DNA from: an uncultured Muribaculaceae bacterium
GTDB taxonomy: Bacteria > Pseudomonadota > Alphaproteobacteria > Rs-D84
Direction: 5' to 3'
Length of the DNA: 64,000 bases
NCBI GenBank assembly: GCA_964619545.1
Contig: CAZUED010000001.1
Span: forward strand, 49,898 to 113,897
Position 1 is the stretch's first letter, and each line of letters opens with the position of its first letter. Shown here piece by piece: positions 1,055 through 54,003 of the stretch. Under the pieces are notes generated by a model. The model was not told the origin of the DNA. It worked only from the letters and a program-made list of their open reading frames with translations, and ran no database searches. A program made the translations under genes and the position numbers.

Positions 1055-1780
1055 ATGTTGTTATTGAAAGATAAAGTTGCACTTATAACCGGTGCAACAG
1101 GCGGAATAGGCGAGGCAATCGCCAAAACTTTCAAGGATATGGGCGCAGTCGTTGTTATTACTGGTCGCAATGAAGCCAAATTGAAAGAATTGGGCGATGG
1201 ATTTATTCCAATTGCTGCCGATGTGTCAAAGCCTGGTGAAGCAGATCGCTTGGTCAAAGAAACAATCGAAAAAGCAGGTAAAATCGACATTTTAGTAAAC
1301 AATGCTGGCATAACAAAAGACACTTTGTTGATGCGCATGACCGACGAGCAGTTTGATGATGTAATAAATACAAACTTGCGCGCATGTTTTCAGCTGTGCC
1401 GTGCAGCGATTATGCCAATGATGAAAAACAAATTCGGACGAATAATCAATATGGCATCAGTCATAGGAACAATTGGTGGTCCAGGCCAGGCAAACTATGC
1501 AGCCTCCAAGGGTGGAATTATCGCAATGACAAAATCTATAGCAGCCGAGGTTGCGTCACGCAATATAACCGCAAATTGTATCGCGCCAGGATTTATAAAG
1601 ACAGCCATGACAGATGTTTTGCCAGAAGAATTAAAAGAAGCATATTTAAAGCAGATTCCAGCCGGCAGATTTGGCGAGCCTGCGGACGTTGCGAATGTTG
1701 CATTGTTCTTGGCATCTGATGCGGCATCATACATCAACGGCCAAACAATTCATGTAAATGGCGCAATGGCCAGATTTTAA
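1055..1780 (+). CDS. fabG: 3-oxoacyl-ACP reductase FabG (short-chain dehydrogenase/reductase)
   Basis: N-terminal KVALITGATGGIG Rossmann motif, NNAG, catalytic YAASKGG. Start chosen at MLLLKDK rather than the tracked ATG at 1028. Confidence 0.9.
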   Translation: MLLLKDKVALITGATGGIGEAIAKTFKDMGAVVVITGRNEAKLKELGDGFIPIAADVSKPGEADRLVKETIEKAGKIDILVNNAGITKDTLLMRMTDEQFDDVINTNLRACFQLCRAAIMPMMKNKFGRIINMASVIGTIGGPGQANYAASKGGIIAMTKSIAAEVASRNITANCIAPGFIKTAMTDVLPEELKEAYLKQIPAGRFGEPADVANVALFLASDAASYINGQTIHVNGAMARF

Positions 1781-1786
1781 AAAAAT

Positions 1787-1816
1787 AAGTGGATAAATTT
1801 TATCCACTTATTTTTT
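1787..1816. terminator. Bidirectional rho-independent terminator: an 11-bp palindrome (aagtggataaa/tttatccactt) with A-run and T-run flanks
   Basis: Perfect inverted repeat 1787-1809 followed by TTTTTT. On the reverse strand it also follows the stop of the 1815..2402 gene. Confidence 0.6.
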
Positions 1817-2402
1817 ATACCATAAAGGGCAGATTTTCTAGATTGCCTTCTTCTACACGAACATTGACATCTATCATTAAAAACACTTTTTCTTCCCCGT
1901 CTTCGGATTGTGCAGGCATGCCCCACATTTCTGGGCTGAGCAAATGGCTGGTATTTACAGAAATTTTAGTAACCAAGTGATCGTCATCCAAAAGAGTGTA
2001 GATTGGCCCGATGTTTCTGGGTGTGTTTTCGCCTATCTCGTGCTCATTCTGCGGACTGCGCAAAGCGTCCAAAAGGGTTTTCATTCTGTTATCAACGTCC
2101 GTGCGTGCCAGACCAACTATTTCAGGGTGCAGCAGCAATATATCTAATTCCGCCAGCAGTTTTAGATTCGGCGTGATTATTGGGTTCCAATCTATACCAC
2201 CAACATGTCTGGTTGAAATCGGATTTTTTGTGGGCGATGGCATCATATATTTCTGCAAGTTGTTCCATGGGCTGTTTTCGACCAGTTTTTTCAACTGGGG
2301 GTGGAACTTCATTCGTATGTTTGCAACATGTTGCGAGCGCTTTTTAGGGTTGGTTCGCAACTCTCCGAAATATAATAATTTAAACTTCATTTTGGTCTCC
2401 AT
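1815..2402 (-). CDS. Hypothetical protein (195 aa), unrecognised family
   Basis: Long ORF ending at the terminator; sits where acpP/fabF would be expected; no motif recognised. Confidence 0.4.
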   Translation of the reverse strand: METKMKFKLLYFGELRTNPKKRSQHVANIRMKFHPQLKKLVENSPWNNLQKYMMPSPTKNPISTRHVGGIDWNPIITPNLKLLAELDILLLHPEIVGLARTDVDNRMKTLLDALRSPQNEHEIGENTPRNIGPIYTLLDDDHLVTKISVNTSHLLSPEMWGMPAQSEDGEEKVFLMIDVNVRVEEGNLENLPFMV

Positions 2403-2535
2403 CTGTATATTTGCGCGAGAACGACGGCAAGGAAATTAATAAAAGAACGAGTATTTTCGCACAACAAGTATTTCAATACTTGTAAGCGGGAATACGAAGT
2501 TATTTATTTAATTTAATGCCGCCGCTTCGCGGTGA

Positions 2536-5124
<2,589 letters not shown>

Positions 5125-5126
5125 AA

Positions 5127-5420
5127 ATGATTAAACAAAGTGAAAAAGAAATTATAGCAAAATCTATTAAGGCATATAATTGCACAGTTCCACTGGTAAT
5201 TGAGGAGATGTCCGAACTTACCAAGGAACTGATAAAGCATTTTTATCGTGGCCGTCCGCGGCGCGATGAAATTATAGAAGAAATTTGCGATGTTTATATT
5301 ACTTTGGAAGAGTTGAAAATTTTTATGGAAATTTCTGACAATGAAGTAAAAAAGCAAATCGAAAAAAAGATTGATCGTCAAATTAAAAGATTGGCAGAAT
5401 GTGAAAAGCCAAAAAAATGA
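5127..5420 (+). CDS. MazG-like nucleotide pyrophosphohydrolase domain protein (97 aa)
   Basis: EEMSELTKEL ... EEICDVYITLEEL pattern typical of the small all-alpha MazG/NTP-PPase fold. Confidence 0.4.
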   Translation: MIKQSEKEIIAKSIKAYNCTVPLVIEEMSELTKELIKHFYRGRPRRDEIIEEICDVYITLEELKIFMEISDNEVKKQIEKKIDRQIKRLAECEKPKK

Positions 5421-5428
5421 TATGAAAA

Positions 5429-6097
5429 ATGTTCGCAAAGAATTGGTTTTTTGATTTAGAACGGCACTTGGTAAATTCTGGCTTGGATTCTGATTCAGAA
5501 ACTTTTGATGTGCTGAAGAAAAGATTGTCCCAACCTGTTTGTTTATCTGCTGATGATTTTGCACGTCAGGCAATTTATGTAATTTTGTCCGGCGGTTTCT
5601 CACAAAAAACAGCAAAAAAAGTACATGCGCAAATAATGGATTATTTGATTAAAAATAATAGTCCAAAATTTGATGATTTATTTGCAATTTTTCATAATAA
5701 AAACAAGATAAATGCAATTATAAAAATATGGGAAAACCGTCAAAAACACCGGGATTTTTACTATGATTTAGATTTTTTGGACAGCAAATTAGATTATTTA
5801 TCATCATTGCCACATATTGGAAAAATCACAGCAAATCATCTGGCAAGGAATCTGGGCGAAGACATTGTTAAATATGACATTTGGATCCAAAGGATCGCGG
5901 TGCGATTCAGAGAGCAAAGTGCAAACAGCAAAGAGCAATTATCAGATAAAATTAATAACCAGAAGCTAAATCCAGAAATAAAAAAAGCATGTGATGATAT
6001 GTTTGCGCACTTGGTAAATGAAACTGGTTTGCAACGTGGTTATATTGATGTTGTGTTGTGGAAGGCGGCGCAAAATCATTTGATTGATGGAATATAA
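5429..6097 (+). CDS. HhH-GPD superfamily DNA glycosylase (MagIII/3-methyladenine glycosylase-like)
   Basis: Helix-hairpin-helix LPHIGKITANHLARNLG followed by DIWIQRIAVRF (GPD-region equivalent); ~220 aa. Confidence 0.4.
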   Translation: MFAKNWFFDLERHLVNSGLDSDSETFDVLKKRLSQPVCLSADDFARQAIYVILSGGFSQKTAKKVHAQIMDYLIKNNSPKFDDLFAIFHNKNKINAIIKIWENRQKHRDFYYDLDFLDSKLDYLSSLPHIGKITANHLARNLGEDIVKYDIWIQRIAVRFREQSANSKEQLSDKINNQKLNPEIKKACDDMFAHLVNETGLQRGYIDVVLWKAAQNHLIDGI

Positions 6098-6761: not shown

Positions 6762-6809
6762 TTGGTTTTGCTTGATTTTCATAAATTGGCTGATATAATC
6801 AGGCCTCGT

Positions 6810-6884
6810 GGCGGGTTAGCTCAGTGGTAGAGCAGAGGAATCATAATCCTTTGGTCGGGGGTCCGAATCCCTCACCCGCTACCA
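6810..6884 (+). tRNA. tRNA-Met (anticodon CAU), elongator-type; could instead be tRNA-Ile2 if C34 is lysidinylated
   Basis: Folded by hand: acceptor ggcgggt/acccgct with a CCA end, D-arm gctc-agtggta-gagc, anticodon arm gagga-atCATaa-tcctt, T-arm ggggg-tccgaat-ccctc. The 1:72 pair is present and the anticodon stem has no three G-C pairs, so it is not an initiator. Confidence 0.8.
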
Positions 6885-7035
6885 ATTAATAAAATATCCC
6901 AAAGGGTTATTTTGTTAATTGGCGGGAAAGATTGGCATGAGGACCAGGGGTCCGCTTACGAGTAAGTGCGTGCAAATGTAATGCAGCACACACTCAACGA
7001 GTGCCAGCATGACGACCACAGGTCGGCGGAAGGAC

Positions 7036-7054
7036 ATCCCTCACCCGCTACCAA
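7036..7054 (+). repeat. 19-bp direct repeat copy of the tRNA-Met 3' end (atccctcacccgctaccaa, identical to 6867..6885); possible att-site remnant
   Basis: Exact 19/19 identity. About 33 nt of weaker similarity to the tRNA T-arm and acceptor extends upstream of the copy. Confidence 0.7.
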
Positions 7055-7071
7055 ATTTTGTATAGGGTTTT

Positions 7072-7145
7072 GCCCCAATAGTATAATGGTAGAACACGTC
7101 CTTGGTAAGGACGAGACGCAAGTCCGATTCTTGCTTGGGGCACCA
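7072..7145 (+). tRNA. tRNA-Thr (anticodon GGU)
   Basis: Acceptor gccccaa/ttggggc with discriminator A and a CCA end, anticodon arm cgtcc-ttGGTaa-ggacg, T-arm gcaag-tccgatt-cttgc. The D-stem has one A-A mismatch. Confidence 0.7.
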
Positions 7146-7225
7146 GAATAACTCACTTTGCAATTTTTTTTACTAGTTCCAGTTTTTTATACTTACATAT
7201 TCATTAAAAGATTTAGGAAAAAATC

Positions 7226-7633
7226 ATGACTAAGCAAAAAACTGATATTTCAACCATATTATCTCAAATCGATTACAAGGGTATTATTTATTGTCAAGAT
7301 TCTCACGCCGTCGTTAAAGTCAACGAGGAAGATGGAGATTATAAAATAAAGGATTTTATAACCCCAGGCGATGTTATAAATACTAATGTTTCAATGGTTG
7401 AAATAAAAGATGGCTGTTTGCAAACGTATAATGAAAATGATGTTGTTTATTATTTTATGGACACCACTTTATGCGATTTAATGCCACATAGTATTTTTTC
7501 AGGTTCTCAACCAAAAATCCTAAATATAGAGCCAGGTTCGGTATTATTTATAAAGAAAAAATCGGATCATTTAATAATAGGCTCTTTAAAAGCTATCATG
7601 ATAACATTGCCAAATAATTCATTAAAATCATAG
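7226..7633 (+). CDS. Hypothetical protein (135 aa)
   Basis: ORF with SD AGGAAA upstream; immediately downstream of the tRNA pair; no recognised domain. Confidence 0.35.
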   Translation: MTKQKTDISTILSQIDYKGIIYCQDSHAVVKVNEEDGDYKIKDFITPGDVINTNVSMVEIKDGCLQTYNENDVVYYFMDTTLCDLMPHSIFSGSQPKILNIEPGSVLFIKKKSDHLIIGSLKAIMITLPNNSLKS

Positions 7634-7641
7634 GAAATGCT

Positions 7642-7776
7642 ATGGCAAACAAAGATTCTCATAAAAATTATTGCGAAAATTACAATGGAACATTGTCTGA
7701 TTTGGCCCGCGACATTGGTGCGATGACTCATGAGGCGCGCGCAGAATTTTTTAAGTTTTTAGCCGATTATGTTTAA
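7642..7776 (+). CDS. Small ORF (44 aa, MANKDSHKNYCENYNGTLSDLARDIGAMTHEARAEFFKFLADYV). The frame continues after an in-frame TAA to 7922
   Basis: SD AGGAAA 5 nt upstream. Downstream in the same frame is a further 48-codon open stretch (KQSLADLSLGRVKYGQKLNDIADLLKQIKSLEDDAWAICKSKTKIISK); this may be one disrupted gene. Confidence 0.25.
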   Translation: MANKDSHKNYCENYNGTLSDLARDIGAMTHEARAEFFKFLADYV

Positions 7777-8098
7777 AAACAAAGTCTTGCAGATTTGTCG
7801 CTTGGCCGCGTTAAATACGGGCAAAAATTAAATGACATTGCAGATTTATTAAAACAAATTAAATCTTTGGAAGATGATGCTTGGGCTATTTGTAAATCGA
7901 AAACCAAAATCATATCTAAATAAAATCCTTGAAATGTTTTAAAATAAATATAAAATCAAAGTGTTCGTTGTGATGACCCGATTAACGACCGGCGAGCAAG
8001 AATAAAAATATAATAAGATACAAAACAGGGTGGCACCGCGCGCATTAAATCTCGCGCCCCTGCGAATTGGAAGATTCAAGAATAAAAAGGTGTCAGAT

Positions 8099-52523: not shown

Positions 52524-53057
52524 TTATTTTTCAAACCACTTTTTTAATTCTCCGTATGCTGCGGCCAAATTTGTAAATTCTGTCGCGGCGGACTTTTTAT
52601 TTTTCGCCGTGTCGGGATGGTATTTTTTTGCAAGCAATCTATATTTTGCCGAAATTTCACGCCAGTTGGCAGTAGGCGGCAATTCTAAAACTTTCAGCGC
52701 GGATGAAACTGATGCAGGCCTACTGGGACGTGTAGGGGACGCGACTTTATCAAATATGCTGCGCCCGTTTATAAAATCTTTCAGGAAATTTACATACTCG
52801 GCATTAGCCTCGTCCGCCGCTGCGCGGTCTTTATCAGAAATTCCAAATGTTTCACGTTCCCAGTCTTGTTCAATTTCTTCCGAGCTCATACCCGCGTAAT
52901 AATTCCAGTTTTTATTGTATTCAGCAGCATGCTCTTTGCAGAACCAATGGTATTCAGACAGGTCGCGCGACTTTGGCGCGCGGCAAATACCTGCTTTTGT
53001 GCAGCCAGGAAAATCACATTTTGTTATCATTTTTTGTCGCCATTGGATGGTGTTCAA
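52524..53057 (-). CDS. J-domain (DnaJ-like) protein with an N-terminal Cys4 zinc-finger
   Basis: C-terminal ISAKYRLLAKKYHPDTAKNK...AAYGELKK (HPD motif); N-terminal CDFPGC...C...C. The start may be at MITKC (53030). Confidence 0.6.
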   Translation of the reverse strand: MNTIQWRQKMITKCDFPGCTKAGICRAPKSRDLSEYHWFCKEHAAEYNKNWNYYAGMSSEEIEQDWERETFGISDKDRAAADEANAEYVNFLKDFINGRSIFDKVASPTRPSRPASVSSALKVLELPPTANWREISAKYRLLAKKYHPDTAKNKKSAATEFTNLAAAYGELKKWFEK

Positions 53058-53880
53058 ATACCGCTTCTTTTAATTTTTCCGGCATTACGTGAGTATAGAT
53101 TTGTGTGGTTGCAATGTCTTCGTGGCCCAGCATCATTTGTATTGCTCGCAAGTTTGCACCGCCCGCCAACAAATGTGACGCGAACGAATGCCGCAGCACA
53201 TGAGGGCTGACCCGCGCGGGCGAAATTCCAGACAAAACCGCGCATTTTTTTATAATCTTGAAAAATCCATCGCGCGTCAGATGTCCGGTTTTACTGGTAG
53301 ATGGAAACACGTATTTAGAATTTGTATCCCCCCCTCGAAGTTCTAACCATTTTGCCAATGCTTCTTGAGCGCCAGTATGCATTGGAACCATACGTTCTTT
53401 TGCGCCTTTGCCATGAATTAACAATTTTTCGCCAAGTATTCCAGTCATTGGTAATTCGCATAATTCAGAAACTCGCAATCCTGACGCATACAGCAATTCA
53501 ATCATAGCCCTCAGACGCGTTGCATTCCGTGTGTCGCCCGCGTTAGAAATTAAAAGTTCTATTTCTTCGGGGCTTAAAAATTTTGGTAATTTTTTTTGTT
53601 TCTTTGGCAGCTCTAATCCAGCTGCTGGATTTTCCGAGATTATTTTTTCTGTTGCAAGAAATTTGAAAAATTGACGTAATGCGCTGGTCTTTCTGGCAAT
53701 AGAAGCCGGCGCTTCATGCAGTCCGGCCAGATACTTTTCCAACTGCGTTGACGTTGCGATTGATAGATTTCCAATCACGTCCGCAGCCATGCGTAAATCG
53801 CGACCATAGGCCTCTAAGGTTTTCACGCTGCGTCCTTTTTCAGCCGCCAGCATTTCCAAAAAAATTTCTATATGATTCAT
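53014..53880 (-). CDS. xerD: Tyrosine site-specific recombinase XerD
   Basis: N-terminal IEIFLEMLAAEKGRSVKTLEAYGRDL, ENPA..L..PK..KKLPKFLS, RLRAMIELLYASGLRVSEL, HVLRHSFASHLL, LGHEDIATTQIYTHV. Start trimmed to MNHIEIF. Confidence 0.85.
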   Translation of the reverse strand: MNHIEIFLEMLAAEKGRSVKTLEAYGRDLRMAADVIGNLSIATSTQLEKYLAGLHEAPASIARKTSALRQFFKFLATEKIISENPAAGLELPKKQKKLPKFLSPEEIELLISNAGDTRNATRLRAMIELLYASGLRVSELCELPMTGILGEKLLIHGKGAKERMVPMHTGAQEALAKWLELRGGDTNSKYVFPSTSKTGHLTRDGFFKIIKKCAVLSGISPARVSPHVLRHSFASHLLAGGANLRAIQMMLGHEDIATTQIYTHVMPEKLKEAVFEHHPMATKNDNKM

Positions 53881-54003
53881 TGTAATACGATTTCCGTCAT
53901 ATGCTGAGCATGCGGAAATGAAATCAACATCAAAGCCAGCAAAGCCACAGCCAGAAGTATCCACAACCATTTAAGAAAATTATTTTTTTTATATTTTTTC
54001 ATA

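Follow-up and report, generated by a model that had tools for sequence, protein, structure and literature searches.

A 169-bp gene-less unit beside a duplicated tRNA-Met 3' end in an uncultured Rs-D84 alphaproteobacterium

The tRNA-Met to tRNA-Thr interval

Between ung and aspS, the window (the whole 64-kb stretch of contig CAZUED010000001.1 analysed here) carries a tRNA-Met gene followed by a tRNA-Thr gene, and between these two tRNAs lies the subject of this study, a segment of 169 bp (6886-7054) which ends in a second copy of the tRNA-Met 3' end and to which we refer as the cassette. An earlier note on this DNA, made from the sequence alone, regarded it as a possible relic of an integration targeted at the tRNA gene. 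Genes in this part of the window follow the order gyrB, two small genes, ung, tRNA-Met/tRNA-Thr, two orphan open reading frames (ORFs) and aspS. Judging by the relatives of its AspS protein, the host is an uncultured gut alphaproteobacterium near Candidatus Enterousia, a representative of the order Rs-D84 with genomes smaller than about 1 Mb and approximately 90% coding (PMC12306168). The features of the interval are listed below; the body of the cassette is termed X_w.

6772-6799, + strand: sigma-70-like promoter, TTGATT-16-TATAAT with TG, 10/12 matches
6810-6884, + strand: tRNA-Met (CAT), intact, with G1.U72, A73, encoded CCA and T loop TCCGAAT (ARAGORN; Rfam)
6867-6885, + strand: direct repeat, copy 1 (repeat search)
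6882-6922, + strand: AT-rich inverted repeat with 19-nt arms, CCC-AAA-GGG apex and U-rich 3' side (repeat search)
6921-7035, + strand: cassette body X_w, with the GGCGGG echo at its start (sequence, fold)
6939-6954, + strand: X_w hairpin GAGGACC-AGG-GGTCCG
6960-6995, + strand: X_w long hairpin, apex TGCAAATGTAATGC
7014-7024, + strand: X_w hairpin GACC-ACA-GGTC
7021-7035, + strand: degenerate tRNA variable loop and 5' half of the T arm, GGTCGGCGGAAGGAC, contiguous with copy 2 (sequence)
7036-7054, + strand: direct repeat, copy 2, a displaced or duplicated tRNA-Met 3' end (repeat search)
7055-7071, + strand: spacer ATTTTGTATAGGGTTTT, matching AAATTGTTATAAT...GGG after the single tRNA-Met end in empty-site relatives
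7072-7145, + strand: tRNA-Thr (GGT), the next gene of the operon (ARAGORN; Rfam)

The repeat described in the earlier note is exact. Exactly two copies of the 19-mer ATCCCTCACCCGCTACCAA are present, both on the same strand (6867-6885 and 7036-7054), and a repeat search of the window gave their spacing as 169 bp. No further copy was found in the 64 kb with up to 3 mismatches allowed, and shuffled sequences are expected to give 0. It extends from positions 59-60 in the T loop of tRNA-Met, through the 3' strand of the T stem and the 3' strand of the acceptor, to ACCA and one additional A. A weaker similarity to the tRNA continues for 15 nt upstream of the second copy, where GGTCGGCGGAAGGAC (7021-7035) aligns with the tRNA stretch GGTCGGGGGTCCGA. 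The two agree at 8 of their first 9 positions, for which we estimate a probability of about 1e-4 at a fixed offset. At the other end of X_w, GGCGGG (6921-6926) is identical to positions 1-6 of tRNA-Met. Both the degenerate T-arm-like stretch and the echo of the 5' acceptor strand (ggcggga) had been pointed out before, and both hold. Two other likenesses, one of 14 nt between the upstream flank of X_w and the tRNA-Met promoter region and one to an inverted copy of the 3' side of the anticodon arm, were at chance level by our estimate and were dropped.

The AT-rich inverted repeat at 6882-6922 links the CCA end of tRNA-Met with the beginning of the segment, and it occupies the slot in which relatives have GC-rich intrinsic terminators after tRNA-Met. 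As to the four hairpins that the segment had been said to contain, ggacc-agg-ggtcc (6941-6953) and gtgc(g)tgca-aatgtaa-tgcagcac (6966-6989) belong to the minimum free energy fold, whereas cttac-gag-taag and cactc-aac-gagtg are alternatives outside it, and folding of the segment is only moderately above that of shuffled sequences (z from -2.2 to -2.6). The 169 bp contain no credible ORF. In the whole 64-kb window, Rfam recognised only the two tRNAs at or above the gathering score, with 65.5 bits for tRNA-Met and 63.1 bits for tRNA-Thr.

The promoter-like site at 6772-6799, a strong one by its sequence, would drive tRNA-Met, the cassette and tRNA-Thr as a single transcript. Since it precedes tRNA-Met, and no terminator-like site was called on the + strand before 7145, the cassette should be transcribed as a spacer of this operon. 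It would then probably be a structured spacer, trimmed by tRNA-processing enzymes.

Empty sites and related cassettes at the same tRNA

A single, unduplicated tRNA-Met 3' end was found after ung in four related lineages, as the earlier note had predicted for an empty site. In three of the four, tRNA-Thr lies downstream at a distance of 29-140 nt. The lineages, with protein identity to the window in brackets, are as follows.

L093 (Ung 87%): tRNA-Met, 29 nt, tRNA-Thr, aspS leader
L147 (88%): tRNA-Met and tRNA-Thr separated by a 60-nt spacer
L092/L005 (Ung 91%, AspS 96%): spacer of 139-140 nt, unrelated in sequence
L094/L095 (85%): tRNA-Met followed by other genes, no tRNA-Thr called downstream

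Downstream of repeat copy 2 the window reads ATTTTGTATAGGG..., the counterpart of the sequence found 3' of the single tRNA end in these empty-site relatives. Thus, the window differs from them by exactly one 169-bp repeat-bounded unit, and an unoccupied attB-like site does exist in related genomes, although a repeat-mediated deletion would look alike. Contigs of the same strain (L001-L004), which are about 0.1% divergent, have an arrangement identical to that of the window.

Cassettes of matching build, with a repeat spacing of 161-187 bp, are present at tRNA-Met in L011, L014, L141/L112, L096-98 and L104, all of them lineages with only about 69% AspS identity to the window. The order there is tRNA-Met, an intrinsic terminator, (A/G)AGGAC...GG(T/G)CCGA, a variable middle, the tRNA-Met 3' end ATCCCTCCGCTGCTACCA, and a terminator; in each case the tRNA-end copy is the 3' end of that host's own tRNA-Met. 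Four types of cassette were distinguished (X_w, X_a, X_b and X_c), across which the ends are conserved and the middles are variable. X_w and X_a have two motifs in common, GAGGACC-N3/4-GGTCCG and, exactly 16 nt after it, TGCAA(A/G)TG(T/A)AA(T/C)GC. A pattern scan of metagenomes with the motifs of these two types returned 7 stretches, i.e., one true homologue (L086), in which X_a stands alone on a contig from which tRNA-Met is absent, and 6 chance matches. The cassette itself is single-copy in the 64 kb, and none was found elsewhere in the 20-kb loci.

The state of the site varies among these distant relatives. Truncated units, cut by a methyltransferase island, were found in L105-108, a terminator-ended unit without a tRNA end in L100/L110, and unit-free tRNA-Met sites in L015, L109, L111 and L113-116. 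L104 differs from L115 by a single additional unit, inserted precisely 3' of ACCA. In L141 the order is gyrB-ung...PagL-tRNA-Met-X-[variable ORFs]-tRNA-Thr-aspS-asmA-uvrB, which is the order of the window; the position of the cassette is therefore ancestral.

The distribution of the cassette types is incongruent with the species tree. The body of X_a is 99.1% identical between L014 and L141, for which the corresponding values are 77% for aspS and 60% for PagL, and 96% identical between L014 and L011 (aspS 88%). L096 has a type which cannot be aligned, though the PagL of this lineage shares 79-80% identity with its counterparts in L011 and L014. Moreover, the hairpins located after the tRNA and after the cassette have changed places between L011 and L096, and spacer A lies 5' of the cassette in L014 and 3' of it in L112. 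From these swapped terminators and spacers it can be concluded that the units are replaced and shuffled at their common CTACCA ends, and cassettes appear to be exchanged between species.

The tRNA-Met gene is also a recombination hot spot for other DNA. PagL protein P0212 is encoded beside tRNA-Met with four different downstream contents, namely methyltransferases, glycosyltransferases, BRCT/ABC genes, and a 400-aa (amino acid) ORF. In L143 (reverse strand, 1566-5670) a 4-kb island at tRNA-Met comprises two DNA methyltransferases, PDDEXK and PIN; it is bounded by a 45-nt repeat which runs from the anticodon loop to CCA, has TTACATATACT(G/A)GACAT motifs at both ends, and contains no integrase. 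In L144/L139/L140 the 5' half of tRNA-Met (positions 1-40) is duplicated and accompanied by a 175-nt remnant with a similar motif, TTACATAGACTAGACAT (L144, reverse strand, 4297-4580). The ends of proviruses in IMG/VR are partial copies of alphaproteobacterial tRNA-Met, and these begin in the anticodon loop or the variable loop or, in the case of L122, in the T loop. Crossovers in tRNA genes (tDNA) are known to occur in the anticodon loop, the T loop or at the T/acceptor junction, and the attP of an island measures about 250 bp and contains a tDNA fragment (PMC4383910).

What the cassette may be

We consider it roughly an even chance (about 50%) that 6886-7054 is a miniature, non-autonomous and gene-less cassette, gained or lost by recombination at the T-loop-to-CCA segment of tRNA-Met. 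In such a process, the incoming DNA would supply the 3' end and the hairpin/terminator (6867-6922) for a regenerated tRNA-Met, and the cognate 3' fragment, with a degenerate T-arm half-site 5' of it, would end up downstream (7021-7054). The family has a GGACC..GG(T/G)CCGA block on the left and the tRNA-Met 3' end on the right, and whole units would come and go exactly at the repeat. Being about the size of an attP region and devoid of a recombinase, the cassette would have to rely either on a trans-acting enzyme or on homologous recombination from one repeat copy to the other. We infer the former, i.e., that a tyrosine integrase acting in trans moves the units, and, with four empty relatives at hand, the state of the window may be taken as a gain rather than as an ancestral state with easy repeat-mediated loss. 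Of the integration proposed in the earlier note, the part that finds support is a repeat-bounded, att-like insertion/deletion unit. A decayed relic is too simple a description, because a family of 161-187 bp units with conserved ends recurs at this one tRNA in a deep clade, with one type near-identical between divergent species.

Islands and prophages integrated at tRNA and tmRNA (transfer-messenger RNA) genes are bounded by the regenerated gene and a displaced 3' fragment (Islander principle, PMC4383910; Williams 2002 cited there). The cassette likewise has an intact tRNA and, downstream and in the same orientation, a 3' fragment whose first bases belong to the T loop, one of the recognised crossover sublocations; its relatives have empty sites and, at tRNA-Met, a larger repeat-bounded island. 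Unlike tDNA islands, it measures 169 bp and not kilobases (the length expected of an island being at least 2 kb), it contains no integrase and no genes, and it belongs to a size-conserved recurrent family instead of being a random remnant. Islander would reject it on both the integrase filter and the 2-kb length filter (PMC4383910). Since both integrase and size are wanting, the arrangement of repeats is the signature of an island without the island, and the cassette is not a canonical island; nor is it a tmRNA, a tRNA or a miniature inverted-repeat transposable element. The last of these, or another miniature element derived from an insertion sequence, was rejected as there are no terminal inverted repeats beyond chance pairings of 4-8 bp, and the flanking repeat is 19 nt of a tRNA.

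By analogy, the closest concept would be an att-flanked derivative similar to the cis-mobilisable elements (CIMEs) known from the S. thermophilus ICESt literature. CIMEs are derivatives of integrative elements which are flanked by att sites, lack recombination genes and are moved by the integrase of a related element; those described are kilobases long and carry genes. The cassette resembles them in its attL/attR-like repeats, in having no recombinase, and in its same-site family in L011, L014, L141, L096 and L104, and the pattern of presence/absence and exchange suggests a putative mobilisation in trans. It differs from CIMEs in being far smaller and gene-less, and no helper or integrase was found in the flanks examined.

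Two RNA systems invite comparison as well. Genes for tmRNA are enriched as integration sites (PMC4383910). Like the tmRNA gene (ssrA), the cassette has tRNA-like ends around an inserted structured domain, its 3' end is the same in kind as an att target, and a gene of such build would attract island traffic and repeats; unlike ssrA, it has no alanine identity, no tag ORF and no pseudoknots, measures 130-150 nt, and shows no conserved structure across the types. Spacers of E. coli tRNA operons, e.g., the leuZ 3' external transcribed spacer (3'ETS) and the metZ-metW-metV spacer, are sponges of small RNAs (sRNAs). The cassette is similarly an internal spacer between two tRNAs and would be freed by RNase P and 3' processing. 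In contrast to the E. coli spacers, which are short, unrepeated and vertically inherited, it shows no sign of a target or of a sponge role.

Several observations weigh against a mobile cassette. Deletion between the 19-nt repeats, of the RecA type or by slippage, yields precise presence/absence equally well, thus the empty sites are no proof of insertion. The enclosed DNA has no integrase, as stated in the earlier note, and when the 10 integrase-sized ORFs of the window (318-435 aa) were compared with Pfam, the sole tyrosine recombinase among them was the product of 53014-53970 (- strand; 318 aa; Phage_int_SAM_1 and Phage_integrase). This gene is located beside lptF/G, 46 kb from the cassette, and looks like a housekeeping XerC/D gene. 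An integrase was likewise not found with Pfam/PHROGs in the island ORFs of the relatives or in flanks of up to 10 kb. With no integrase found, loss through recombination from repeat to repeat is indistinguishable from the action of an integrase. Furthermore, an integrase is unlikely to accept a circle of 169 bp as its substrate, so that a larger ancestor and an internal deletion must be assumed, and stable GC-rich hairpins are atypical of attP arms. The homology of X_w to the other types consists of short motifs. When each cassette was compared with all loci by nhmmer, X_w was not connected to any other type, and its match to the covariance model of X_a is weak (8.8 bits, E 2.6). IMG/VR, searched with three cassette patterns, yielded no cassette type, and neither did phage and plasmid collections searched by blastn. 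Finally, the cloverleaf predicted for X_a (z -5.3) suggests selection at the level of RNA, and not of DNA sites alone.

This last observation bears on a second explanation, which is doubtful and yet has to be taken seriously, namely that X is a small RNA gene derived from tRNA-Met. An old duplicate of the tRNA together with its terminator would have had its arms expanded or replaced, and its 3' end would have been kept parent-like by gene conversion, or because RNase P, the trimming of the 3' end or the upkeep of the CCA require it. In that case paralogy would account for the direct repeat, and recombination between its copies would have removed the unit at the empty sites. A tRNA-derived structured small RNA was among the options listed in the earlier note, and it may apply here. 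Features of X_a speak for it. The predicted fold of X_a is a cloverleaf with four arms (z -5.3 in L014 and -3.9 in L112), and its covariance model can be aligned end to end, arm on arm, with tRNA-Met (12.6 bits); among 22 further loci this model found only L141. X_a also possesses an extended -10-like motif, TGGTATAGT, and an intrinsic terminator of its own, and in L086 it stands alone. Its body has diverged less than the protein genes beside it, and 6 of its 8 substitutions are, by our count, at positions unpaired in the predicted fold. In addition, the 5' ends echo the acceptor strand specific to the host, with GGCGGG in the window and GGCAG in L014, three successive hairpins lie between the tRNA-like ends in all types, and in genomes below 1 Mb and about 90% coding (PMC12306168) inert DNA should not persist.

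However, no consensus structure emerged when RNAalifold was applied to the four types, which represent four independent lineages and align poorly (-8 kcal/mol, with an unfavourable covariation term), and the shared TGCAA.TG.AA.GC pairs in different registers in X_w and X_a. The fold of X_w is at z of about -2.3, that of X_c is only weakly better than shuffles (-1.2), and that of X_b is no better (+0.4); both X_b and X_c come after strong terminators and have no promoter. The closing stems are formed in different registers, often burying the CCA, and the T-like stem is lost in L112. Conserved ends around a variable middle are the opposite of what is found in most RNA genes, and the distribution of the types requires horizontal exchange anyway. 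Rfam, run with the gathering score and with E<=10 on 6780-7250 and on the L014 homologue, returned nothing but tRNAs, and the 5' parts of the cassettes resemble the 5' half of the tRNA only marginally (p 0.02-0.09), the resemblance losing its significance once the T-arm block is left out. The block in question, GGGG(T/G)CCGA, corresponds to the 5' strand and loop of the T arm and is present as an exact 11-mer in L096 (p 0.0125). The idea that X is a pseudo-tRNA of full length, interrupted by an insertion precisely within its T loop, depends on this block, the rest being not significant, and was kept as a lead only. Coding for a small peptide was rejected, as no ORF is common to the types.

A mobile unit and an RNA gene are compatible if the cargo of the unit is RNA. 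Rather unlikely, in our opinion, is the combined proposal that the cassettes encode tRNA-Met-derived RNAs of a new class, cloverleaves whose arms are expanded, as is clearest in X_a. Each would retain the T stem, the 3' acceptor strand and the CCA of its parent tRNA, and would be a self-contained, horizontally mobile unit of about 170 bp with its own tRNA-like end as attachment site. If true, this would be a minimal mobile RNA gene in very small genomes, and perhaps a tRNA decoy in a locus which otherwise collects defence genes.

It is improbable that the segment is an inert partial tandem duplication of tRNA-Met, produced by slippage or unequal crossing-over in the window species alone, decaying and without mobility or function. 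The single copy in the window, the lack of an integrase and the tRNA-like pieces at both ends of the segment agree with such an origin, as does the fact that, among five sampled lineages of the genus-level group, only the window species has the cassette. Nevertheless, the lineages with about 69% AspS identity share with it the hairpin, the 16-nt spacing to the loop motif, the size and the terminal tRNA-Met copy. The pattern derived from the shared motifs matched just the seven metagenome stretches with their one true homologue, and most of the middle (about 80 nt) is without a counterpart in the tRNA.

A known tRNA-like RNA, i.e., a one- or two-piece tmRNA, a tRNA with an intron, a signal recognition particle (SRP) or 6S RNA, or a ribozyme, is very improbable and, as far as sequence models tell, refuted: the GGCGGG start, the CCCGCTACCA end and the length of about 134 nt are superficially those of a tRNA-like domain with an insert, but ARAGORN found no tmRNA or extra tRNA in the window, Rfam (E<=10) was negative, there is no tRNA call and no RF00005 match on 6886-7054, the acceptor has G1.U72, G2-C71 and C3-G70 in place of the G3.U70 of alanine identity, and no tag frame is shared. 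The alpha_tmRNA or tRNA-like RNA for which the earlier note had proposed a check falls with these results. Against the permuted tmRNA model (tmRNA_permuted), X_a reached 9.7 bits with a gathering score of 47, and the SRP and 6S ideas were dropped because motifs or matches were missing.

Surroundings of the cassette and meaning for Rs-D84 genomes

Some further observations concern the tRNA pair and its surroundings. In L001 and L003, two independent contigs from the window species, the first letters lie within the anticodon stem of tRNA-Met and read GCT in place of GGA (6837-6839; GCT|ATCATAATCC), thereby differing from tRNA-Met at two bases. Such a start would fit a second junction, e.g., that of an anticodon-loop island in those strains. 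The T loops of both tRNAs in the window (6862-6868 and 7123-7129) read TCCGA(A/T)T, with C in place of U55. U55, present as pseudouridine, is near-universal in the T loop, and canonical T loops are found in relatives (TTCAAAT in tRNA-Met of L094, L147 and L015; TTCGATT in tRNA-Cys of L013).

The approximately 900 bp of small orphan ORFs that had been described between tRNA-Thr and aspS are made up of two ORFs and, in addition, a leader. The first ORF (7226-7633, 135 aa) belongs to no Pfam/PHROG family and is absent in L005/L092, in which the 93-aa ORF directly follows tRNA-Thr; it represents a second small insertion beside the tRNA pair in the window species. The 93-aa ORF (7642-7923) is intact in L001, L005 and L092, and its copy in the window is interrupted by a nonsense codon (T at 7774, where L001 has G). 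The aspS leader (7920-8064), short at about 145 nt, is weakly T-box-like, with the core AGGGTGGCACCGCGCGC and a UGGC bulge which would fit a G73 discriminator. The Rfam T-box model gave it 28.7 bits (E 6e-5) versus a gathering score of 93, and L005 and L093 have the same leader sequence. Among Alphaproteobacteria, T-boxes are uncommon.

In the distant relatives, L100 (reverse strand, about 40-165 nt after tRNA-Met) and also L110 have promoter-like hexamers, TTGCAT...TATAGT, and an intrinsic terminator with no tRNA-like end. Judged by these features, this unit is a candidate sRNA in the slot held elsewhere by the cassette. In L109 and L113-L115 (reverse strand), a promoter-like site located 150-250 nt after tRNA-Met is followed by a (C)AAAGG run, GGCAAAAGGTTGCGAAGGATGACAAAGGTTTACAAAGGGG, which recalls the repeated GGA motifs of CsrA-binding RNAs. 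L005 and L006, the closest genome records, are labelled 'uncultured Muribaculaceae', and their AspS proteins are 92-96% identical to that of the alphaproteobacterial window; the gene order of L005 is the same as in the window, and L006 ends just upstream of aspS. These bins are probably mislabelled or contaminated.

Repeated tRNA fragments are the usual mark by which integrated islands are recognised, but island finders discard units which have no integrase or are shorter than 2 kb, so cassettes of this kind go unseen. Here, a size-conserved, gene-less unit recurs at one tRNA across a clade of gut bacteria with genomes below 1 Mb and appears to be exchanged between species. If moved in trans, these cassettes would be among the smallest integrative elements and would show that a recombination system is active in reduced genomes; as RNA genes, they would add a new tRNA-derived RNA to those known. 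Either way, the interval from tRNA-Met to aspS may serve as a landmark for strain-variable DNA, of defence and surface polysaccharide genes, in Rs-D84 genomes.

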